Assembly: GCA_001795615.1 (NCBI GenBank)
Contig: MGKI01000008.1
Span: 1 to 53,519, forward strand
Direction of reading: 5' to 3'
DNA: 53,519 nucleotides
Source of the DNA: Candidatus Yanofskybacteria bacterium RIFCSPLOWO2_01_FULL_42_49
GTDB lineage: Bacteria; Patescibacteriota; Minisyncoccia; 2-02-FULL-40-12; GWA2-44-9
Shown: one piece after another, positions 2,807 through 53,519 of the stretch
Position numbering within the stretch: the first letter of the stretch is position 1
Layout: each line of letters opens with the position of its first letter
Notes under the pieces: model-generated
Databases searched by the model: none
What the model saw: the letters and a program-made list of their open reading frames with translations, nothing else
Told to the model about the DNA's origin: nothing
Program-made: the position numbers and the translations under genes

Positions 2807-3886
2807 CTAATTATTCTTAAGTTTCTCCGCATTCGTAAGAATTTCTTCCACCATTTTATCAGCCACGCTGTGGGTAGGAACTTGTTCGCAAGCGCTGCGT
2901 TCAAATATATTTTTAAGCGTATCATAGATGCACGCAACCTTGCGAAGCGTACGTTCGCGTTCATAGCCGTTGAGCTCACGCTCACCCGCTATGTTTATGA
3001 GTCCGCCGGCGTTAATCGCGTAGTCAGGCGCATAGAGGATACCGCGAGTAAAAAGAGTATCGCCGTGTGTCGGAGTGGCAAGTTGATTATTCGCTGCGCC
3101 TGCCACAATACGACACTGAAGCTCGGGAATCGTTGCGTCATTTAAAACTGCTCCCAGGGCACAGGGTGAATAGACATCCACTTTTTGGCAATGAATAATA
3201 TGTGGCTCTACAACTTGAGCACCTTGGAATTTAGCCAAGGCTCGTTCTACCAAGCGATTATCGGTATCCGCGATTATGAGCCGCGCGCCTTGCTCGTAAA
3301 GAAGGTTGGCGAGACAAAAGCCGACTTTACCAAGACCTTGAATGGCAACAGAGCGGTCAGAAATAGTGTCATTTCCAAAAATTGTTTCAAGACATGCCCG
3401 AATGCCATAAAGCACGCCAAGCGAAGTAACCGGTGAAGGATCACCAGAACCTTTCACGTCGCCATGGAGACCTTCGGAGCGGCCATTTACGAAAAGCGTT
3501 TCTTTAGCAATAACCTCAATGTCTGCAACTGTAATACCCACATCTTCACCCGTGAAAAATGCACCATTAAAATAGTTCAGGTACTGCCCATAAACACGGA
3601 GGTAGGCCTCGGTCTTGTTCTTTTTGGGATCGCCGACCAAAACCGCTTTGCCACCGCCGAGTTTAAGTCCGGCAAGTGCAGCTTTATAAGTCATGCCACG
3701 TGAGAGGCGAAGTGCGTCAGTGATGGCCGCAAGATCATTTGGGTAAAGATACATCCGTGTCCCGCCAAGCGCGGGTCCGAGGATATCATTGTGAATCGCA
3801 ACGAAACCGTGAAGTCCTGTCTGCTCATCATTGATCATGGTCAGTAACTTGTGACCCTTGAAGTCGGGAAGTGTCCGGAAATCCAT
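2807..3886 (-). CDS. Leucine dehydrogenase (Glu/Leu/Phe/Val dehydrogenase family)
   Basis: 359 aa. Contains the GPALGGTRMY and KAALAGLKLGGGKAV motifs and a GLGKVG Rossmann signature. Confidence 0.85.
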   Translation of the reverse strand: MDFRTLPDFKGHKLLTMINDEQTGLHGFVAIHNDILGPALGGTRMYLYPNDLAAITDALRLSRGMTYKAALAGLKLGGGKAVLVGDPKKNKTEAYLRVYGQYLNYFNGAFFTGEDVGITVADIEVIAKETLFVNGRSEGLHGDVKGSGDPSPVTSLGVLYGIRACLETIFGNDTISDRSVAIQGLGKVGFCLANLLYEQGARLIIADTDNRLVERALAKFQGAQVVEPHIIHCQKVDVYSPCALGAVLNDATIPELQCRIVAGAANNQLATPTHGDTLFTRGILYAPDYAINAGGLINIAGERELNGYERERTLRKVACIYDTLKNIFERSACEQVPTHSVADKMVEEILTNAEKLKNN

Positions 3887-4037
3887 AAATTCCCTTTCAT
3901 TTGTTAGAATAAAAATGTACCGTTTTTATTCTAGTCCTGTTTCAAGAAATAGGCAACATCGCGTCCAGTTAACCATATGAGGTAACAAATCTGATAAGAT
4001 GGGGTAACCAAGGTTAACCATCTTAATTAAATCCCCA

Positions 4038-6239
4038 TTATTGGGGATTTTGGATATATGCATCTATGCTTTTTTCAATTTGATCAGGAAAATTTGCTGC
4101 CGGTTCAACTAAATTTCTTCCGTAAATTTCCCTTACAATCGTCTTAAACACTGGCAATGCCGCTTTAGCGCCGGTCTCGCTACCGCCAAGTTTTCTATTA
4201 TCATCATAACCGATTCTTACGGCCACAGTAATGCCAGTAGGGCCATATGTAGACCCAACAAAGAGAGCGTCTCTGAAGTCATTAGTAGTTCCCGTTTTTC
4301 CCATGACCGGAACGGGGAAATTCTCAAGAGTCAAAGAATAAGCCGTTCCACCCGGGATTCTCACCGTACCTCTTAGACCTTCTTGTATAAGTTCCAGATG
4401 GGCTTCGTAGAATGGGGCGACTATCGTTTGGAGATTTGCCTCAAAAATAACCTCGTTCGCATTGCCGGTAACCTTTCTGATTATGTAGGGTTCGGCAAGC
4501 ATGCCCGATGCCATGGCCCGATAAGCATTCGCCAGTTCAAGAAGATTTACTTCCGACGCGCCTATTGCGGTTGTAACATACGGCTGAAGCTCTGTTTTGA
4601 TTCCTAAAACTTTGGCAATGCTTATGATATCCTTAATGCCACCAACTTGCAGGGTCAACCCCACTGTTGCAGCATTTCTAGATTCAAATAGTGCTCTGCG
4701 CAAAGTCACACTTCCTTTGTATTTGCCATCATAGTTATGAATTATGTGTCTTGGCCTGTTCGGGCCCATATATAAGAACAGGGGAATATCCGGAATAGTA
4801 TCTTCCAGCGTCCAAAAATGGGTTATTGCGGCAAAAAATACGAATGGCTTAAAAGCTGATCCGGGCTGTCTTAATGAGTGTCTCGCGCGATCCAGATCAG
4901 AATAAACAAGGCCCTTTGATTTATAATTTTTCCTCCCGCCGACTTCCGCAAGAATCGCAGCATCGCTGTTTCTTAAAACAATAACCGACCCCTGAATAAT
5001 ATCTTTGCCCTCAGGGTGGCGCCCTTCAAAAAGTCTAAGTCCTTCTTCAAGAGCATCATTGGTGATTTTCTGGATTTCAAGGTCGCTTGTGGAAAAAATC
5101 TTAACTCTTCCATCAAACAGATTATCTGTGTTTACTCCGGTCAAAGATAATTCCTGGAGAATATTACCCACAACTGACGGAGCATCAGTGAAACCGCGTT
5201 TATCTTCCGGTAATGGCGGATTTTCCTGTTTAAATTTTTCCGATTCGTTAGAGCTTAAATAATTATTCTTGACCATGAGGTCAAGAATCTCATTTCTCCG
5301 GCTTATGCGGTTTAAATTTTCAGAGAAATCGGAAGTCGGGGCATATCTGCTGGGATTTTTAACGATACCAGCCAGCAAAGCCGCTTCGCCATGATTCAGT
5401 TGACTCACCTCTTTCTTAAAGTAATAGAGAGAGGCGGCTTTTATCCCGTATACTTTTCGAAAATATGTATAACTTAAAAATCTGGCCAAAATTTCATCTT
5501 TTGTCCTAAGTTTAGAGCCGAAGTATTGCGGTTTTGCAAGTTCTGCTTCCAACCATATAGCCAATCGTAATTCCTCGAGCTTAATGAGGTACCTTCTTGG
5601 AAGCAAGCTCCACGAACTGCTTTCTGTTTTATTGACGGTGTAGTTAATATGGTTCCTATAATAAAGGCCAACGATCTGGTCAGTGATTGTAGAAGCTCCT
5701 TGCTGAACGATAATCGTGATCTCTCCTTTTTGAATTAATGTTCTTAACGAACTGTTGGAATTTCTGCCGACCGCCCTTAACAACAACGCATCCCAATCTA
5801 CCCCGTTGTGTTGGTAAAAATCCTTATCTTCGGCAGACAAAAAAGCGTTTCTAACGGGAACGGTAATTTCGCTCGGTCTGATTATCAGTCTGTATTCTCT
5901 GGCTAAATTTATTATCGGTTTTTCTCGAGCATCATAGATCACGCCGATCTGGGGCACATCGAAATTAACAAACGACTGGAGGTCTGGCACATTGTCACGA
6001 TTATAAAATATGTAATGAGCAATAAGACCGATGGAAATTAGTCCAGTTGTCAGGCTCATCAAAAGAATCCAGACAATGACAATGCCAGGCCATCCGAGAC
6101 AATAGAACAAAGACCAGATGAATTTTCCCAGAGTCATGCCGGGAGGGCCTTTTTGAGGGATCAATATTTTTCCCTTTTCAAAGAGCTTATAACATGAGTA
6201 AGTACCACATTTCATTGTTAAAGTAAATGCGATAAACAA
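4038..6239 (-). CDS. Class A penicillin-binding protein (glycosyltransferase GT51 plus transpeptidase)
   Basis: EDKDFYQHNGVD and QGASTITDQ (GT51) are present, with SAFKPF (SxxK) and KTGTTND (KTG). There is an N-terminal TM segment. The true start may be an internal Met (M9 or M35). Confidence 0.9.
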   Translation of the reverse strand: MFIAFTLTMKCGTYSCYKLFEKGKILIPQKGPPGMTLGKFIWSLFYCLGWPGIVIVWILLMSLTTGLISIGLIAHYIFYNRDNVPDLQSFVNFDVPQIGVIYDAREKPIINLAREYRLIIRPSEITVPVRNAFLSAEDKDFYQHNGVDWDALLLRAVGRNSNSSLRTLIQKGEITIIVQQGASTITDQIVGLYYRNHINYTVNKTESSSWSLLPRRYLIKLEELRLAIWLEAELAKPQYFGSKLRTKDEILARFLSYTYFRKVYGIKAASLYYFKKEVSQLNHGEAALLAGIVKNPSRYAPTSDFSENLNRISRRNEILDLMVKNNYLSSNESEKFKQENPPLPEDKRGFTDAPSVVGNILQELSLTGVNTDNLFDGRVKIFSTSDLEIQKITNDALEEGLRLFEGRHPEGKDIIQGSVIVLRNSDAAILAEVGGRKNYKSKGLVYSDLDRARHSLRQPGSAFKPFVFFAAITHFWTLEDTIPDIPLFLYMGPNRPRHIIHNYDGKYKGSVTLRRALFESRNAATVGLTLQVGGIKDIISIAKVLGIKTELQPYVTTAIGASEVNLLELANAYRAMASGMLAEPYIIRKVTGNANEVIFEANLQTIVAPFYEAHLELIQEGLRGTVRIPGGTAYSLTLENFPVPVMGKTGTTNDFRDALFVGSTYGPTGITVAVRIGYDDNRKLGGSETGAKAALPVFKTIVREIYGRNLVEPAANFPDQIEKSIDAYIQNPQ

Positions 6240-12232: not shown

Positions 12233-12385
12233 AAAATCTCTAATCTCGAAACCCTAATCTCTAAATAATATCAAAATTCAAAATTATGTCCCCTTGGGAC
12301 ATCTCCCGAAGGGAGAAAAATTTTAAAACTTTTGAGATTTGACATTTGAGTTTATTTAGAAATTAGAGATTAGAATTTAGAGATT
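12233..12385. repeat. AT-rich palindromic 'word' element, family I copy 1, with two GC mini-hairpins at its centre
   Basis: The left arm aaatctctaatctcgaaaccctaatctctaaa is complementary to the right arm tttagaaattagagattagaatttagagatt. The centre holds atgtccc-ctt-gggacat and ctccc-gaa-gggag. Its arms are almost identical to those of 33314-33435. Confidence 0.85.
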
Positions 12386-24856: not shown

Positions 24857-25112
24857 CGAGGCCATCAGATAATTTTTTACGCCTTACGCTCCATTAACAA
24901 ATCCAGCGATAATTTCTCATTGTTCAGACAAAAATTTAGCATCCGTTCCTCCTTCGGCAAGCTCAGGATTTTCCGGCTAAATTTTATGGAAGATTAGGTA
25001 AAATTAACATATGTTAATTTTACCTAATCTTTGCTTACCTGAACAATTTCTAAATTATCTTGGATTTGTGATAAAGGAGCGTAAACGCTAGAAAAATTAT
25101 CTGATGGCCTCG
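24857..25112. repeat. 256-bp compound inverted repeat (MITE-like or large RNA hairpin)
   Basis: The outer arms 24857-24927 and 25039-25112 begin with a perfect 21-bp match (cgaggccatcagataattttt) and are otherwise about 80% complementary. The centre 24990-25031 is a perfect 42-bp palindrome. A side hairpin spans 24931-24985. Confidence 0.85.
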
Positions 25113-32263: not shown

Positions 32264-33315
32264 ATTTTAACTCCCATGATTTTCAAAATAAAAAGAAGCG
32301 AAAATGGGGTCGCTTTTTTTTGCTTGCCGGATTTTTAGCCGTAAGCTATATAATTTTTAACACGGCTCTATTTAATAAAGAATTTGAAATAAAAAACGAA
32401 TTCGCCGAAGAAGATAAGTTTGAAGCGGCCTGGCTCAAGAAATTTGCCGGTTTATTGTTCTTCAATCAAAACCACGCCGAAGAAATAGACAAGAACTACA
32501 TCATGCCAGAAAAAGAGCCAAACCGACTGGACATACTGATCCTCGGCATAAGGGGAGAAGGCGACGAGAACGCTGAAGAAGGCGGAGCATTGCTTACCGA
32601 TACAATGATGGTGTTTAGCCATGACCAACTTACCAAAAAATCTTCTCTAGTTTCAATCCCCCGGGATTTCTATGTCAAAATAGGCTCAAATAAAAATAAA
32701 ATAAACTCCGCTTACGAATACGGACTTCTGAGAAAAGAAGGGGCTGATTACGCAAAGAAATTAGTATCTCAAATAACAGGCGTTTATATAGATAACGCCG
32801 TCGTGGTAGATTTCTCTTCGTTTGAAAAATTAATAGACCAGCTCAGAGGCATAGATATAACTCTGACCAAATCATTCCGCGAAGAAGGCCAGTGGGGATA
32901 TGCTTTTGAACTGCCGGCAGGCGAAAACCACCTGAACGGACAAAATGCTTTGTATTATGTCCGCTCGAGATATTCGTCTAACGATTTTGACCGCGCATTC
33001 AGACAACAGCAGGTATTGTTCGCGATAAAAAACAAAGTAACAACCCTGCATTTGATTTCTGATCCTATAAAAATTCTATCCGTAATTAATACATTAAGCC
33101 AAAACATAAAAACCGACATCAACATCTGGGATGTGAAAGAAATAATTGATCTTGCCAAAGAAGTGGACACCTCGCCGGCCATGTTTAAGAAAGAAGTCTT
33201 GTCAACGGAAAACCTTCTCTACCAGTCAACTGGCCCTCAAGGAGCTTATATTCTATTGCCGCAAGGAGATAGTTTTGACCAAATCAAGCAGTTATTTCAA
33301 GAAATAATAAAATAA
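32251..33315 (+). CDS. LytR-CpsA-Psr (LCP) family protein
   Basis: An N-terminal TM segment, then LILGIRGEG...ALLTDTMMV...SIPRDFYV and Y.RSRY. Confidence 0.85.
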   Translation: MDQLDFNSHDFQNKKKRKWGRFFLLAGFLAVSYIIFNTALFNKEFEIKNEFAEEDKFEAAWLKKFAGLLFFNQNHAEEIDKNYIMPEKEPNRLDILILGIRGEGDENAEEGGALLTDTMMVFSHDQLTKKSSLVSIPRDFYVKIGSNKNKINSAYEYGLLRKEGADYAKKLVSQITGVYIDNAVVVDFSSFEKLIDQLRGIDITLTKSFREEGQWGYAFELPAGENHLNGQNALYYVRSRYSSNDFDRAFRQQQVLFAIKNKVTTLHLISDPIKILSVINTLSQNIKTDINIWDVKEIIDLAKEVDTSPAMFKKEVLSTENLLYQSTGPQGAYILLPQGDSFDQIKQLFQEIIK

Positions 33316-33435
33316 ATCTCTAATCTCAAAACCCTAATCTCTAAACAAATCCAAAAACCCAAATCTCAAAAACGTTTTGAATTTTGATATTTGAGATTAT
33401 TTAGAGATTAGAAATTAGAATTTAGAGATTAGAAT
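33314..33435. repeat. AT-rich palindromic 'word' element, family I copy 2
   Basis: The left arm aaatctctaatctcaaaaccctaatctctaaa is 30/31 identical to 12234-12264. The right arm is ...tttagagattagaaattagaatttagagattagaat. It fills the whole spacer from stop codon to start codon. Confidence 0.9.
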
Positions 33436-33436
33436 A

Positions 33437-34237
33437 GTGACTTCCATCATCATCGTCAACTACAAAAATCCGCCGTTATTGAGATTGTGTTTGTCGTCGT
33501 TAAAAAGAGCCCTCTCTGCTAACTTCAAACACGAGATATTGGTCGTTGATATTGCTTCTATTCCCGAAACAAGAAATGTGATCAAAGAATTTCCAGGGGT
33601 CAAAATAACAACATTCAAAGAAAACATCGGCTACACAAAAGGCGTTAATGAGGGGGTCAAGGCTTCATCTGGAGACTATATACTGATACTTAATCCCGAC
33701 ATCGTGCCCATGACAAAATCCATTGAGGGGCTTACTTCATACCTGGCAGCCAATACCAATATCGGCCTTGCCGGACCTCGACTCTTAAATTTTGACGGTT
33801 CGGTCCAAAATTCCGCCTTCCGATATTATACGCCCTTAACAGTACTCTGCCGGCGCAGTCCTTTAGGCCATACCCCTTTCGGTAAAAAAATATTGAACAA
33901 ATTCGTAATGGCAGATAAAAAATTAAACGCACCCTCGGAAGTTGAATGGCTGATGGGTTCTGCTATGCTGGCTTCTCGAAAGGCAATAGATAAGGTGGGA
34001 CTGATGGACGAAAATTTTTTTATGTACATGAGCGATGTTGACTGGGCAAGGCGGTTCTGGGAAAATGGATTCAAGGTGGCATATTATCCGTTTTCGGAAA
34101 TGTACCATTATCACAAGAGAAGTTCGAAAGGCCGCTTCGGTCCATTAGATATTTTCATGAATAAACAGAGCAGATTGCATTTAGTTGATGCGGTAAGATA
34201 CTTTAGGAAATACGGAATAAAAATTTCTAATACCTAA
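33437..34237 (+). CDS. Glycosyltransferase family 2
   Basis: GTG start. Contains TSIIIVNYKNPPLLRLCLSSL, ILVVD and GYTKGVNEG. Confidence 0.85.
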   Translation: MTSIIIVNYKNPPLLRLCLSSLKRALSANFKHEILVVDIASIPETRNVIKEFPGVKITTFKENIGYTKGVNEGVKASSGDYILILNPDIVPMTKSIEGLTSYLAANTNIGLAGPRLLNFDGSVQNSAFRYYTPLTVLCRRSPLGHTPFGKKILNKFVMADKKLNAPSEVEWLMGSAMLASRKAIDKVGLMDENFFMYMSDVDWARRFWENGFKVAYYPFSEMYHYHKRSSKGRFGPLDIFMNKQSRLHLVDAVRYFRKYGIKISNT

Positions 34238-34343
34238 TATCTAATTACTAATGAAATGTCTAATGCTCAAATGTCCAATTAGAGATTTGAAATTAAACAT
34301 TTAGAATTTTATTAGAAACTAGGAATTAGAAATTAGATATTTT
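34221..34343. repeat. AT-rich palindromic 'word' element, family II copy 1
   Basis: aaatttctaata...ctaattactaatgaaatgtctaat faces ...attagaaactaggaattagaaattagatatt. The left arm begins inside the last codons of the GT2 gene. It shares words with 42513-42630. Confidence 0.8.
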
Positions 34344-39659: not shown

Positions 39660-41531
39660 ATGCAAATCAGAAACATCGCAATTATTGCTCACGTTGACCA
39701 TGGGAAAACAACCCTTACTGATGCCCTAATGAAACAAACAGGTATGGTTGAGGAGGGATTCAGTATGGACATAAACGCGCTTGAGAAAGAGCGCGGTATT
39801 ACTATTTATGCCAAGAACGCCTCTCTTTTTTACAAAGATACGAAAATAAATATCGTCGACACTCCCGGCCATGCGGATTTCGGTTCAGAAGTAGAGCGAG
39901 TCTTAAGATCAATTGACTCTGTGTTACTTATCGTGGACGCCCAAGAGGGACCGATGCCCCAGACCAAATTTGTTTTAAAAAAGTCTCTGGAACTGGGGCT
40001 AAAGCCGATACTGGTTATAAACAAGATAGACAAGCCGGCGGCTAAGCCCAATGAAGCCCACGAAAAAGTTCTGGAACTTTTCATGGATCTAGGGGCCAAC
40101 GACGAACAGCTGGACTTTAAAACCATCTATGCCAACGGACGAGCGGGAATAGCAAAATTAAAAATGAAGGACGAGTCAAAGGATTTGTCTCCTTTGCTTG
40201 ATCTGATACTCAAAGAAGTGCCGCCGGCGCCTTCTGATACTTCAGCTCCGTTGCGTTTTCAGCCATTTAATCTTGGGTACGATAATTTTTTGGGCCGGCT
40301 TGGTATCGGCAGAGTTTGGTTCGGGACTATGAAGGTAGGGGATAGTGTATTTATAAAAAAGCCGACAGAGATTCTAGGGGCGGCTAAAGCACACCCCCAA
40401 GAAACTTCTCCGAGCACTGGTGAAACTCGCACGGGAAAAATAACTAAATTATTTAATTTCCGAGGGATGGAGAGGAAAGAAACCGATGAAGCACAAGCCG
40501 GCGATATCGTCATGATTGCCGGACTTCCGGACATATACATCGGAGAAACCGTATGCGCCTCTCCTGATGTGGAGCCCTTGTCGGCTATCAGCGTAGATGA
40601 GCCGACCATATCTTTGAACTTTCTGGTTAACGACTCTCCGTTCGCCGGAAGAGACGGAAAGTTCGTGACCAACAGACAATTAAAAGAACGACTGGAAAGA
40701 GAGCTTGAGGTCAATATCGGGCTGAAAATTTCCGCCGAAGGCGGATCCGCCTCTGGCGGAGATTTTTCAAGTACTGCTTACAAAGTTTACGGCCGAGGAG
40801 AACTCCACATCGCTATCCTGCTTGAAAATATGAGAAGAGAGGGCTATGAGCTTCAGGTCTCACAACCGCAGGTGATTATCAAGGAAATAGACAACCAAAA
40901 AATGGAACCATTTGAAGAGGCGCTTATTGACGTTCCTGAAAATCTGTCCGGAGTGGTTATACAAAAACTCGGCAAGCGAGCCGGAAAAATGATGAATATG
41001 GTCCAACACCACGGCGAAGTTCGCATTACTTTTGAAATACCGACACGCGGTCTTTTGGGCTTCAGGAACGAGTTTATGATTGATACTAAAGGCGAGGGGA
41101 TACTCGCAAGCCACTTCATCGGCTTTCGACCCTATGCTGGGGAAATAAAAAAGAGAAGCGTCGGTTCTATGGTTTCTATGGAAACAGGCAAGGCGCTTGG
41201 TTTTTCGTTATATAACCTCCAGGACAGAGGCAAGTTATACATCGGGCCGACTGCCGAGGTCTATGAGGGGATGGTCATTGGTGATGTATCAAAAGGAAAC
41301 GACATGTCCGTTAACCCTATCAAAGGTAAAAAATTAACGAATATGCGGGCTTCGGGTTCAGATGAAAATATAATTCTCGTCCCTCCGTCTCCGATAACCC
41401 TTGAGACCGGTCTGGAAATTATGCAAAACGACGAATACCTCGAAGTAACGCCTAACAACGTCCGGCTGAGAAAAAGATACCTTACGGAAAATGACAGAAT
41501 AAGAGCAGCCAGAAGTTCAGCTTCTCAATAA
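39660..41531 (+). CDS. typA: Translational GTPase BipA/TypA
   Basis: IRNIAIIAHVDHGKTTLTDAL, DTPGHADFG, NKID and GRGELHIAILLENMRREG. Confidence 0.93.
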   Translation: MQIRNIAIIAHVDHGKTTLTDALMKQTGMVEEGFSMDINALEKERGITIYAKNASLFYKDTKINIVDTPGHADFGSEVERVLRSIDSVLLIVDAQEGPMPQTKFVLKKSLELGLKPILVINKIDKPAAKPNEAHEKVLELFMDLGANDEQLDFKTIYANGRAGIAKLKMKDESKDLSPLLDLILKEVPPAPSDTSAPLRFQPFNLGYDNFLGRLGIGRVWFGTMKVGDSVFIKKPTEILGAAKAHPQETSPSTGETRTGKITKLFNFRGMERKETDEAQAGDIVMIAGLPDIYIGETVCASPDVEPLSAISVDEPTISLNFLVNDSPFAGRDGKFVTNRQLKERLERELEVNIGLKISAEGGSASGGDFSSTAYKVYGRGELHIAILLENMRREGYELQVSQPQVIIKEIDNQKMEPFEEALIDVPENLSGVVIQKLGKRAGKMMNMVQHHGEVRITFEIPTRGLLGFRNEFMIDTKGEGILASHFIGFRPYAGEIKKRSVGSMVSMETGKALGFSLYNLQDRGKLYIGPTAEVYEGMVIGDVSKGNDMSVNPIKGKKLTNMRASGSDENIILVPPSPITLETGLEIMQNDEYLEVTPNNVRLRKRYLTENDRIRAARSSASQ

Positions 41532-42512: not shown

Positions 42513-42630
42513 AAATTTCTAATTACTAATTCCTAATTTCTAAATATAATGTCTAATCCTTAAATTTCTAAAATTGGTCATTAGAAATTGGGGATTTGAT
42601 TAGAAATTAGATATTAGAAATTAGTAATTC
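42513..42630. repeat. AT-rich palindromic 'word' element, family II copy 2
   Basis: aaatttctaattactaattcctaatttctaaatataatgtctaat faces attagaaattagatattagaaattagtaatt. It shares aaatttctaat, ctaattactaat, atgtctaat and attagaaattagatatt with 34221-34343. Confidence 0.8.
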
Positions 42631-44049: not shown

Positions 44050-45369
44050 CTAATCGTTCTTGATGAAAAGCGTTATCTCCTGCCACATCAATGCTATTGC
44101 TGCCTTAACGGGAAGAATTGACAACATGTATTTTAAATCAACTAACTCTCTAATCACCCAGCCCCAGAAACCTTTTACATTTACGCCTCCCCAAAGATGG
44201 GCAAGTGCATATTTGCCGCCAACGGGGGCTATCCAAACATCAAAGAAGGGGTTATAGCTTACTAGCTTATCAGATTTTAGCGACCGCAAAATGTTTTTGG
44301 CTGCTATTTTGCCCTGCTCCACGGCAACATAAGCCAAAGCCGGAACTAATCTTCCGGTTTTCTGATCTTGAAATTCAACATTATCCCCCGCCGCGAAAAC
44401 ATTCGATAAGCCGGCAACCTTAAGACTGTCGTCAACGACTATTTTCCCGTTGCCGGCCAAAGACATGCTCGGCAAGTTTTTGAGAATATCCAGCGGTTTT
44501 ACTCCGGTAGTCCACACTACCAAATCAACATCTATGGTTTTTCCGTTCTTTAGTTTTATGTAATCGCTTCTGACTTCTTCAACCGCCGCTCCTTCCGTTA
44601 CCTCAACACCTAACCGGGTAAGCCGCTCCATTATAACAATCCGCTCTTTGTCTGAAATCATCGGCAATATTTTTGGAGCCGCTTCTATTAGAAGCACTCT
44701 CTCGCAACGACCCTTGATCCCGCGTGCTTGAGTAAATTTTTTGACGCAGCAAGTAAGTTCGGCGGCAACTTCAATTCCAGTGAAACCGGCGCCGATGACT
44801 GCAATTTTTACCCCGTAGTGAATTTTCCGAAATTCTTTTGGCGACTTCGTCGCAGTCGGAAAATCTACTACGGGGTTTATAGGCTCGCTTTTGACATCGC
44901 CTTCGCGTTGAGTTGCAAAAACCAACTCGTTTATTTTTTGATTCAGCGCCAGTCCGTTTTCTAAACTTTTAAAACTAAAGGCGTATTCTTTAACTCCGGG
45001 AACTCCAAAATCAGATGACTGGCTGCCGAGCGCGATTATCATATAGTCATAATCGAGTATCTCCCCTCCCCTGGTGGCAACTTTTTGATTCTCAACATCT
45101 ATGGAAAATATCTCCGCTTGGATAAATCTAATTTTCTTAGCAGAAAAAATATCCGAATATGGGATACATATCGTTTTCTTTAACCGAATGGCGAACGGAT
45201 CTTGTTTTAACCCATAAGCCGACGCCACTTCATATAAAGCTGGGACAAATAGGTGATAGCTGTTTTTGTCTACTAAAGTTATCTCGGCTTTACTTCCAAT
45301 CTTTTTTTCCAAATCTAAAGCGCAACGAATGCCACCAAATCCTCCCCCCAATATCAAAATTTTATGCAT
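44050..45369 (-). CDS. ndh: Type II NADH dehydrogenase (FAD/NAD pyridine-nucleotide disulfide oxidoreductase)
   Basis: KILILGGGFGGI, a second Rossmann motif KIAVIGAGFTGIE, and FAAGD. Confidence 0.88.
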   Translation of the reverse strand: MHKILILGGGFGGIRCALDLEKKIGSKAEITLVDKNSYHLFVPALYEVASAYGLKQDPFAIRLKKTICIPYSDIFSAKKIRFIQAEIFSIDVENQKVATRGGEILDYDYMIIALGSQSSDFGVPGVKEYAFSFKSLENGLALNQKINELVFATQREGDVKSEPINPVVDFPTATKSPKEFRKIHYGVKIAVIGAGFTGIEVAAELTCCVKKFTQARGIKGRCERVLLIEAAPKILPMISDKERIVIMERLTRLGVEVTEGAAVEEVRSDYIKLKNGKTIDVDLVVWTTGVKPLDILKNLPSMSLAGNGKIVVDDSLKVAGLSNVFAAGDNVEFQDQKTGRLVPALAYVAVEQGKIAAKNILRSLKSDKLVSYNPFFDVWIAPVGGKYALAHLWGGVNVKGFWGWVIRELVDLKYMLSILPVKAAIALMWQEITLFIKND

Positions 45370-51529: not shown

Positions 51530-53519
51530 CTATTCCGCAAGTATTTCAGCCGATGTTTCCGGGGTACTTTCGGGTGATGCTTCGAGAGTAGGAGTTGGTT
51601 CTGGCGTTGCTTCCGGCGTCGGTTCGGCGGCATCAGAAGATGTCGGCGCGACATCTTCTGATGCCGTTAATTCTGGCTCTGGCTCAGGAGTTGGCAATTC
51701 AGAAGGACTTGGCGTTAGTTCAGGCTCTGGAGAAGGCGTCGGGCTTTCTAAAGGCGCAGGCGTGTTTACCGGCTCGTTTTCCCCAGTAGTAGAAGTTCCG
51801 GTTACGGCTTCGCCGAAGACCTGTCTAAACTTTTCTCTGGTAACACAGATGTCATCAACGCAAAGTTCGTTTGTCTTTACTTTTTGGAAAGTTCCGACAG
51901 TTGCCGTAACGTTTTCCGCCACCACATGCGCCACTCTCAGCAGCCCCTTTTCAAACACGATATTAAACGCATCTTTAAACATAGAAATAACGGCGTTGAA
52001 TATTAAACTGCCATTTACCGTGTTGCCATTAATAACCATCTCATCAGGCACCAGCTGGCCGTTGGCTGCTTCCAAGACCGTGATCTTGTCATTGAGTTCC
52101 TGAATGGCTTTAACAATTAATGGGGTCAGGCGTCCGTAATCAACTGACCATGGATTCATTTTTGGATCATCGCCGCCGACAGTAACCGCATACGGGTATA
52201 TTTCATACAGTTCTTGAGCAATGAGTCCTTGTGTTTTGGCTTTATTTGGGTCGCTGATAAAGTTAAACTCACGGACTGATATCTCTATTAACTCATTTAG
52301 ACCAAGCCCTGAATCAATGATATTTTCCTTGAGACGCCGGTCTGAAGTGGTATTATATGTCACAGCCGCAGCGCCTGAATTTTGCGTGACACTGCCTATG
52401 ATTGAATTAGCCGCGTTTCGAAAGATAATATATGTCCCTGCTTCAACATCAGCGCTTGGAAGTAAGTCAAGATGTGCGCCAAATGTACCTTTAATAGTGA
52501 GGATTGAGCCTGAGTTAAAACTCGTCGTCCCGATGCTGACGTTGCCGCCAAGTGGATTTAAGGCAATAGGATAGGAGTTGCCGCTTGAAGAAGTATGACG
52601 ATGTTGAATTGAGGCGGCAAATGGGGTTGTGGTGTCAATAGTAAATGCCAAATCTGTTAATCCGTTGTCAATGTTCAATAATGCGGCGGTATCCACTGTA
52701 AGTGATGGGTCAGTATCGCCACCCACTATTGATAATTTTGAATATGGCCCCGTCGTCCCGATGCCGACGTTGCCGGTGGAAGCGATTCTGACCATTTCGG
52801 TATCGCCTACAAAAAGACGAATAGAATTTGTATCTGTTGTGCCGGTTGTGCCGGCATGAAGTTCTAATAAACCGCCGGCCCCGCTTCTGTTGGTGCCGCT
52901 CATGCTAATTCTTGCGCCACGAGCTGACGAATCGGCGCCGGCAGCTGATAACACAATATATCCATCATCAGCCCCATTGGTAGTGGCCAGACCGATTACA
53001 TTGTTTTTGGCTATGGACAGTAGTGTTTGCGGGCTTGTTGTCCCAATCCCCATGTATCCCGTTGAGGCAATCGTCACAATCGGACTATTGTCGTTGTTGA
53101 AAATATTGAGTCGTTCAGTGCCGTTGCCCAATCCGATTGAGAAGTTACTTTGGTTAACTGCGCCGGAACCATTGCCTCTAAAGAAAGCCGAGGCGCTGGC
53201 GGTGTTGTTGGCGATGAATATCTGGGAGATGGAAGCGAATTGAGCAGAGATGGAACCGTCAACTTCCAAGTCCCCGGAAACAAGCAAGTCATTGCTTGCC
53301 GAGATGTAATTTGCATGGCCGGTAGTTGATGTCCCGAATCTGTTGTAGCTTTGCGAGCTGAAGCCCCCGACTTGCAATGCTCCGAAGAGGCCGTAGCTAG
53401 CCGAGGCCGTGCCTTGGACTTCAAGGACCGTAACCGGGACTGTTCCAAGGCCGAGTCTGGCGAATTGGGGGGTGGCCGAAGTATGAATATCCTGGGGTGT
53501 TGACAGAGTGACGGTTCCG
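51530..53519 (-). CDS. Tail-fibre-like surface protein with a peptidase-S74 intramolecular chaperone domain; 5' end outside the window
   Basis: Repeated GIGTT motifs are present. TSDRRLKENI...GLIAQELYEIYPYAV...WSVDYGRL is typical of S74 and lies at about 52060-52345. The tail is P/E/T-rich. The frame stays open upstream of the tracked start (53377) to the window edge. Confidence 0.75.
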   Translation of the reverse strand, partial: GTVTLSTPQDIHTSATPQFARLGLGTVPVTVLEVQGTASASYGLFGALQVGGFSSQSYNRFGTSTTGHANYISASNDLLVSGDLEVDGSISAQFASISQIFIANNTASASAFFRGNGSGAVNQSNFSIGLGNGTERLNIFNNDNSPIVTIASTGYMGIGTTSPQTLLSIAKNNVIGLATTNGADDGYIVLSAAGADSSARGARISMSGTNRSGAGGLLELHAGTTGTTDTNSIRLFVGDTEMVRIASTGNVGIGTTGPYSKLSIVGGDTDPSLTVDTAALLNIDNGLTDLAFTIDTTTPFAASIQHRHTSSSGNSYPIALNPLGGNVSIGTTSFNSGSILTIKGTFGAHLDLLPSADVEAGTYIIFRNAANSIIGSVTQNSGAAAVTYNTTSDRRLKENIIDSGLGLNELIEISVREFNFISDPNKAKTQGLIAQELYEIYPYAVTVGGDDPKMNPWSVDYGRLTPLIVKAIQELNDKITVLEAANGQLVPDEMVINGNTVNGSLIFNAVISMFKDAFNIVFEKGLLRVAHVVAENVTATVGTFQKVKTNELCVDDICVTREKFRQVFGEAVTGTSTTGENEPVNTPAPLESPTPSPEPELTPSPSELPTPEPEPELTASEDVAPTSSDAAEPTPEATPEPTPTLEASPESTPETSAEILAE

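Follow-up and report, generated by a model that had tools for sequence, protein, structure and literature searches.

Palindromic repeats that persist within protein-coding genes are known from Rickettsia, where the Rickettsia palindromic elements (RPEs; Ogata et al. 2000, summarised in PMC10969869) lie in frame in unrelated housekeeping genes and encode a peptide compatible with folding of the host protein. [quoted passage not shown] Elements of the piggyBac type have CCC...GGG termini and 4-bp TTAA-like targets, with TCAA, TAAA, TTAG and CTAA listed as variants, and the IS1380 transposases form the prokaryotic outgroup for piggyBac (PMC10813416). Here, a 53,519-nucleotide stretch of DNA from Candidatus Yanofskybacteria bacterium RIFCSPLOWO2_01_FULL_42_49 (contig MGKI01000008.1; hereafter the window), an ultra-small groundwater bacterium of the candidate phyla radiation (CPR), was analysed, in which a hairpin lies in frame within ndh, the gene for type II NADH dehydrogenase (NDH-2). 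This hairpin is very probably one copy of a 65-bp non-autonomous MITE that behaves like the RPEs.

The boundaries of the insertion were established by comparison with homologous genes. An alignment with 40 NDH-2 homologues defined an insertion of exactly 23 residues, NPVVDFPTATKSPKEFRKIHYGV, which is absent from 38 of the 40 and is found only in the window protein and in homologues P0001 and P0002. The 38 homologues that lack it run ...P-I|K-I-A-V-x-G-A-G-F-T-G across the site. At the nucleotide level, the filled sites of the window and of two of the loci fetched for comparison (L001 and L004) read A-TAAA-[CCCC...65 nt...GGGG]-TAAA-AAT. The closest insert-less relatives were used for the empty-site comparison, and a single TAAA is present in each: cccATAAAAatc in L045, ccgGTAAAAata in L046 and acgATAAAAtta in L047. 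The 65-nt element and the 4-nt duplication together add 69 nt, or 23 codons, and such filled and empty sites are the classical hallmark of a transposon that makes a 4-bp duplication. The first-pass annotation of the window had described the hairpin as a hydrophilic, in-frame insertion just before the second Rossmann motif, a description that the alignment upheld. Both homologues that carry the segment retain its nucleotide symmetry, and no equivalent segment devoid of symmetry was seen among the homologues. That annotation had left the hairpin unnamed; a mobile miniature inverted-repeat element with a target-site duplication is, in our judgement, its very likely identity.

The nested stems reported at 44811-44876 (ccccgtagt/actacgggg, attttccga/tcggaaaat and gcgac-ttc-gtcgc) are present as claimed, and the element itself can be refined to 44811-44875 (Table 1). 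Its 20-nt terminal inverted repeats read 5'-CCCYGTAGTRRATTTTCCGA, and 18 of the 20 arm positions are paired; an inverted-repeat search returned arms of 21 nt at 44810-44830 and 44856-44876, 90% complementary and 25 nt apart. Folding of a 91-nt coding-strand RNA stretch gave a minimum free energy of -37.5 kcal/mol compared with -16.5 ± 3.1 for dinucleotide shuffles (z = -6.86), and none of 200 shuffles folded as well. A similar departure was obtained for the 66-mer folded as DNA (-20.1 kcal/mol, z = -6.93). The 20-nt arm, with up to three mismatches allowed, has an expectation of 0.00 in the window and is present there only as the two arms, so that the symmetry exceeds chance, as had been proposed. 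No other CCC...GGG element with a 4-nt flanking repeat occurs in the window. Rfam at the gathering threshold, applied to the window and four loci, returned tRNAs and no family for the hairpin, and a permissive scan of the hairpin gave a best E value of 0.86, to miRNA hairpin models matched by chance.

Table 1. Positions in the window of the element, its parts and its host gene
Feature	Positions	Strand	Basis
ndh (host gene), intact ORF of 439 aa for type II NADH dehydrogenase (NDH-2)	44050..45369	-	Pfam, 4NWZ and homologue matches
Second Rossmann fold (NADH-binding): beta-strand and GxGxxG, KIAVIGAGFTGIE, adjoining the insertion on its downstream side	44770..44808	-	4NWZ, homologue alignment, AlphaFold2 model
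First copy of the target-site duplication (+ strand TTTA, coding strand TAAA)	44807..44810		Filled versus empty NDH-2 sites
23 inserted codons, residues 165-187, NPVVDFPTATKSPKEFRKIHYGV	44809..44877	-	Homologue alignment
65-nt palindromic element (very probable MITE) proper, CCCC...GGGG	44811..44875	-	Sequence, fold, repeats, ~30 other contexts, nhmmer E = 2e-22
Terminal inverted repeat, one arm, CCCCGTAGTGAATTTTCCGA on +	44811..44830		Repeat search, arm scan, family alignment
Asymmetric A/T-rich linker, the element's variable part, AATTCTTTTG on +	44831..44840		Comparison of copies
Inner 5-bp hairpin GCGAC-TTC-GTCGC, sequence variable, stem kept	44841..44853		Fold and compensatory variants in other copies
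Terminal inverted repeat, other arm, TCGGAAAATCTACTACGGGG on +	44856..44875		Repeat search, arm scan, family alignment
Second copy of the target-site duplication (+ strand TTTA, coding strand TAAA)	44876..44879		Filled versus empty sites; flank comparison

The host gene retains the features of an NDH-2. Its product matches Pyr_redox_2 in Pfam (E = 5.8e-48) and the Caldalkalibacillus NDH-2 (4NWZ; E = 1e-44, aligned over residues 3-418), and both dinucleotide-binding GxGxxG motifs (GGGFGG and GAGFTG) are conserved in the homologue alignment. Given that the ORF and both motifs are intact, the enzyme is probably functional. The closest proteins in a set of 5.8 billion are 50-75% identical, derive from groundwater metagenomes and are mostly 413-414 residues long, and the named nearest homologues are labelled Candidatus Yanofskybacteria or related Parcubacteria. 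Around the hairpin the minus strand translates as ...KSEPINPVVDFPTATKSPKEFRKIHYGVKIAVIGAGFTGIE..., and the segment 'inpvvdfptatkspkef' faces a gap in the alignment with 4NWZ, the C. thermarum enzyme. In an AlphaFold2 model built from a 41-sequence alignment (mean predicted local distance difference test score, pLDDT, 80.8), residues 157-184 are predicted to be unstructured (pLDDT < 50) and to lie between a helix (136-157) and a strand (185-192) that leads into GAGFTG. Placement of the insert in this low-confidence loop is in line with the gap that the solved enzyme of C. thermarum shows at the same place.

The element is one of a dispersed family. One genome per species, from 185,579 species genomes, was scanned for exact matches to one arm, CCCCGTAGTRRATTTTCCGA. 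This yielded five loci, four of them full copies, in metagenome-assembled genomes (MAGs) labelled Paceibacterota, Minisyncoccia, Yanofskybacteria and Saccharibacteria. The same scan of Joint Genome Institute metagenomes yielded 35 loci, mostly from groundwater sites that, from the contig names, we take to be Hainich and Rifle-type aquifers. Once duplicates among the genome and metagenome loci had been removed, 30 unique, unrelated contexts with both arms were available, in contigs of groundwater CPR bacteria (Patescibacteria), and the 4-nt direct repeats match on both sides in 27 of these. The flanking 4-mers vary by locus: TCAA/TTGA is commonest, followed by TAAA, TTTG, TAAG, TTAG and AAAA, and TTAA is also found among the duplications. 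The outer bases of the left and right 4-mers co-vary between loci with the interior of the element unchanged, which argues against fixed cleavage sites of the IS200/IS605 type. A 2-bp duplication around a 67-nt element was considered and ruled out on the same grounds, given the co-varying outer bases of TTTG, TAAG, TTAG and AAAA. One identical 65-mer was observed at four loci with different flanks (L010, L031, L032 and L041). Single-arm matches in Desulfosporosinus and termite-gut contigs (L007, L013, L018, L026, L030 and L034) have no second arm and were set aside as chance.

Conservation within the family was assessed with 32 distinct copies. Arm positions 1-3 are C:G pairs in at least 28 of the 32, GTAGT at positions 5-9 is near-invariant (at least 31), and 31 preserve the A.C mismatch of position 10 and the G.T wobble of position 11. 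The inner hairpin shows compensatory variants elsewhere (GCGGC/GCCGC, ACGGC/GCCGT and GGTCCGAC/GTCGGACC). Covariation within the main family is slight, at 3 of 24 pairs, and single changes in the arms break pairs, a combination that fits a young repeat better than an ancient structured RNA. A diverged subfamily detected with nhmmer keeps GTAGTAGATTTT...AAAATTCACTAC, has compensated inner-arm changes (TGAG/CTCA and TCAG/CTGA) and contains two inner hairpins. Elements range from 64 to 76 nt among the variants and have no capacity to encode a transposase.

Several individual copies are of separate interest. At L042 (1760-1900) a related palindrome, AGTTCACTACTCGG...CGAGTAGTGAAGTT, encloses the element. 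A Dus gene (L021 5204-5341, equivalent to L025 5097-5234) contains an adjoining pair of elements from two subfamilies, with in-frame readthrough of both. A near-identical copy at L009 (4775-4839) is in the MAG labelled Saccharibacteria, a CPR class different from that of the other copies; either the element has spread horizontally or the co-assembled MAG was wrongly binned or labelled. Within the window, a weak nhmmer match (E = 0.008) at 51782-51818, in a 662-aa ORF on the minus strand, covers the element's left arm and its inner hairpin, CCCAGTAGTAGAAGTTCCGGTTACGGCTTCGCCG; a right arm could not be recognised, and the match may be a decayed copy. In the same ORF, ~120 nt from this match, a perfect 18-bp palindrome with a 3-nt loop is found in frame at 51628-51666.

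The sites at which copies persist fall into coding and promoter-associated contexts, and host genes were identified from the fetched loci. The consensus is stop-free in two frames per orientation (four of six); the third contains TAG or TGA, from GTAGTAG/GTAGTGA. Among copies within ORFs, only frames F1, F2, R1 and R2 are ever open, and all internal copies have the canonical 65 + 4 nt, the variants of 64, 66-69 and 76 nt being intergenic or terminal. In-frame copies were identified in the tRNA-dihydrouridine synthase Dus (two, just before the ...DINMGCP motif), in MnmA, near the N-terminus of an NT5C/HAD-type protein, in a Wzy_C-type membrane protein, of which the element forms the C-terminal tail, and in two further membrane proteins. 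A HMMER search of 1.84 billion representative proteins with a 30-aa insert peptide gave no match at E <= 0.001, for a query that is too short and for clusters that may be represented by insert-less members, and a query that joined the peptides of the four open frames matched no indexed words. For 12 of 18 intergenic copies with a TTGA duplication, the downstream TTGA is the -35 element of a TTGAnn-N16-18-TAnnnT promoter, as in L022 (TTGACA-N16-TAGAAT); the background frequency of this pattern among TTGA sites in that DNA is 5.4% (P = 8e-12). Duplication of the target regenerates the -35 hexamer, which explains tolerance of such insertions with or without a transposase preference for TTGAC.

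Comparison of the three NDH-2 carriers suggests that the insertions at this site are young and recurrent. In 500 bootstrap neighbour-joining trees they were never monophyletic, and in all 500 the window ndh was placed among insert-less genes, apart from the other two carriers. Between the elements of the three carriers, 2-5 of the 69 positions differ (93-97% identity), compared with 69-75% identity over the rest of the gene, where third positions (45-53%) are near saturation (binomial P at most 2e-6). Identity outside the element is 50-57% upstream and 75-78% downstream, so that similarity stops at the element boundaries. The window copy and the Dus copy in L021 differ at a single base, whereas three bases separate the window copy from its NDH-2 counterpart in L001; the L004 copy has two uncompensated arm mismatches. 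Movement of a filled allele by homologous recombination was also considered and is unlikely, given that the flanks diverge immediately outside the element. The simplest reading of these comparisons is that two or three independent, recent insertions entered the same TAAA in the same orientation. Such a hotspot could reflect target preference together with a narrow set of tolerated combinations of loop, frame and orientation.

A minimal scheme for the window gene can be proposed. The MITE would have inserted into a TAAA lying across the Ile-Lys codons (ATA|AAA), just ahead of the beta-strand that opens the NADH-binding Rossmann fold, and would have duplicated that target; the site before insertion would read ATAAAAAT. 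Given that 69 bp amounts to 23 codons and that the consensus has two stop-free frames per orientation, a 23-residue hydrophilic loop would be gained and NDH-2 would not be truncated. Mobilisation may have occurred in trans, by a cut-and-paste DDE/DDD transposase making 4-bp staggered cuts, and copies would survive only where they are tolerated, namely in surface loops and at -35 boxes regenerated by the duplication. As a lead to the enzyme, the CCC...GGG ends and T(C/T/A)(A/G)A duplications may be taken to resemble piggyBac/IS1380-type ends.

Several results weigh against a mobile origin. Neither the window nor the fetched loci yielded an autonomous element or a transposase bounded by such ends, and the DNA between the paired copies in L008 and L020 contains only housekeeping genes (S15, polynucleotide phosphorylase, a beta-CASP RNase and others), with no transposase. 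Viral contigs gave no arm matches; with a looser subfamily-B pattern they gave single-arm matches only, probably by chance. The window has one intact copy, and the exact-arm scan of 185,579 genomes returned only four full copies. Copies outside NDH-2 were all retrieved with an exact 20-mer, and their intactness is in part an effect of ascertainment. Finally, a promiscuous transposon would not be expected to insert three times at one site in a single orientation, which calls for a hotspot or a strong selective filter.

This coincidence of site, orientation and frame in three diverged NDH-2 genes is what would be expected if the segment were instead an old, vertically inherited part of NDH-2, kept by selection on a host function (translational pausing, RNase processing or a protein module) and lost scarlessly in most lineages. 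Nucleotides of the element are indeed far more conserved than the rest of the gene, the non-Watson-Crick A.C and G.T arm positions are preserved in 31 of 32 copies, and hairpins between short direct repeats can undergo precise deletion. However, the element is also present, with flanking duplications of its own, in unrelated genes and at intergenic sites, and since the carriers are never monophyletic, vertical inheritance requires at least five independent precise losses. The two uncompensated arm mismatches of the L004 copy and the small covariation of the family (3/24 pairs) likewise speak against long-term selection on the structure. An ancient insertion under nucleotide-level selection with many scarless losses is thus much less parsimonious than recent insertion, and we consider it very unlikely. 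The promoter-proximal copies raise a different possibility, that the hairpin is a host regulatory module, such as an operator or UP-like hairpin just upstream of -35, of which the NDH-2 copy would be an accidental by-product. Although the arms are strongly conserved across lineages and 12 of the 18 TTGA-flanked copies adjoin a sigma70-like promoter against the 5.4% background, TTGA is duplicated on the far side as well, so insertion alone explains the arrangement; the downstream genes are unrelated, and many copies are in ORFs or at non-promoter sites. Later co-option would fit these data and would leave the origin unexplained, and this is the least probable of the explanations considered.

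Mobility by another route was also weighed, in which a single-stranded hairpin is handled by an HUH/Y1 enzyme, as a REPIN-RAYT system or an IS200/IS605-type palindrome-associated transposable element (PATE), and the flanking 4-mers are cleavage or target sites in place of duplications. Each arm contains a conserved GTAG, which is the hallmark of REP sequences, the hairpin doublet is strong and has conserved mismatches, and the 4-nt targets are biased to TCAA/TTGA. Yet the left and right 4-mers co-vary (TAAA, TTTG, TAAG, TTAG and AAAA) without internal change, which is predicted by true duplication and is unexpected for IS200/IS605-type ends. Exactly one copy of the 4-mer is present at empty sites and, unlike REPs, copies are found within ORFs. 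This explanation is improbable, if somewhat less so than the other two. A MITE with a 4-bp target-site duplication remains the preferred reading.

Other palindromes were noted in the same genes and in the window. In-frame palindromes with CCCCCACAC...GTGTGGGGG ends and a TAAA duplication were observed elsewhere in two NDH-2 genes: at residues 83-108 of the L001 gene (P0001; 78 nt added, z = -9.5) and at residues 346-367 of the L046 gene (P0009; 66 nt added, z = -8.7). These two are a sibling family with the same type of end and the same target. In the L047 gene (P0012), a 34-aa Arg/Gln-rich insertion at residues 158-191 lies immediately upstream of the same Rossmann strand; it folds strongly, at -51 to -62 kcal/mol depending on the excerpt, with a z of only -1.9 owing to GC content. 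A TypA/BipA-like GTPase ORF at 39660-41531 (+) of the window contains an in-frame GC-rich palindrome, AAAATTTCCGCCGAAGGCGGATCCGCCTCTGGCGGAGATTTT (40725-40766), that encodes ...KISAEGGSASGGDFS..., including AEGGSASGG, and a GGSASGG-type peptide is inserted at another position in NDH-2 homologues P0010, P0016, P0034 and P0038. A second family of palindromes inserted in frame would account for this, and CPR proteins may be shaped by several palindromic families. Between genes of the window, four AT-rich palindromes (115-150 nt; 12235-12385, 33315-33433, 34222-34341 and 42514-42629) consist of AATCTCTAATCTC / AATTTCTAAT-like units with arms 74-87% complementary and no long ORF across them, and look like a separate repeat family; similar low-complexity peptides (for example KSQTNSKLKNKIENLNIENSLKI) occur within MnmA in L040. 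At window 24990-25031 an overlapping palindrome of 25 nt, AAGATTAGGTAAAATTAACATATGTTAATTTTACCTAATCTT, is perfect and has no long ORF across it; it may represent an operator or a terminator-less hairpin. In L045, the closest relative of the window, a free-standing ORF of 175 aa for a LAGLIDADG homing endonuclease (3870-4397) is located two genes downstream of the insert-less ndh.

The genomes of CPR bacteria (Patescibacteria) are tiny and gene-dense and are generally considered poor in mobile DNA. If the MITE reading is correct, an active family persists in them by inserting in frame into essential genes and onto -35 boxes, leaving both undestroyed, which would be a second, independent case of the strategy of selfish DNA in protein-coding genes that is known from Rickettsia. 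In-frame insertion would also account, by a concrete mechanism, for some of the insertions in CPR proteins that lack an explanation. The hairpins would serve as practical strain-typing markers and could be a source of assembly and annotation artefacts in MAGs, and recurrent insertion at one NDH-2 codon would be a natural setting in which to tell target choice from selective filtering. A broader proposal, that several sibling CCCC-ended palindromic MITE families with 4-bp duplications insert actively and selectively into surface loops and -35 boxes across Patescibacteria, hit the same NDH-2 codon repeatedly and account for a substantial share of lineage-specific CPR peptide insertions, is possible but doubtful. 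Were it true, in-frame MITE insertion would be a major ongoing source of protein-length variation in streamlined CPR genomes, and co-opted regulatory or structural roles would be possible.

A full-text literature search retrieved no description of MITEs or palindromic intragenic elements for CPR, Patescibacteria or Saccharibacteria, and a recent paper on genetic exchange in Patescibacteria makes no mention of transposases or MITEs. Among described systems, the REP/REPIN sequences resemble the element as a hairpin doublet of two inverted ~20-nt units with a conserved GTAG in each, but the CPR element has target-site duplications and copies inside genes, and no RAYT gene is in view. It differs from the IS200/IS605 PATEs in its inverted-repeat ends and co-varying flanking 4-mers. 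The duplications and the location inside genes argue that it belongs to neither group. With piggyBac/IS1380 it shares CCC...GGG ends and 4-bp TTAA-like duplications, a resemblance of the ends only; its commonest duplication is TCAA/TTGA, not TTAA, and no DDD transposase was found.

The small size, terminal inverted repeats, target-site duplication and dispersed copies that characterise MITEs are all observed in the element. Like Correia elements of Neisseria and QMITE of Coxiella, it is short and multi-copy, has inverted repeats with a duplication, forms a hairpin, is often near promoters and is occasionally fused in frame to ORFs (PMC10969869, PMC5896051). By contrast, Correia elements duplicate TA and carry their own promoters, whereas the CPR element duplicates 4 bp (T-N-A/G-A), with TTGA restoring the -35 box of the host. 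It also differs from both Correia and QMITE in that element and duplication together make 69 bp, a multiple of three, and in that it has no known parent insertion sequence. The likeness to RPEs is one of behaviour only, namely a 65-nt element in frame within unrelated genes (NDH-2, Dus, MnmA, NT5C/HAD, Wzy_C and membrane proteins) of a host with a reduced genome; the host phylum is unrelated, and the sequence family probably is too. Unlike RPEs, which measure about 100-150 nt, the element is 65 nt long and has clear 20-bp terminal inverted repeats, a 4-bp duplication and many copies at -35 boxes. On this comparison, the element is classified as a new MITE family of the kind that is tolerated in frame.

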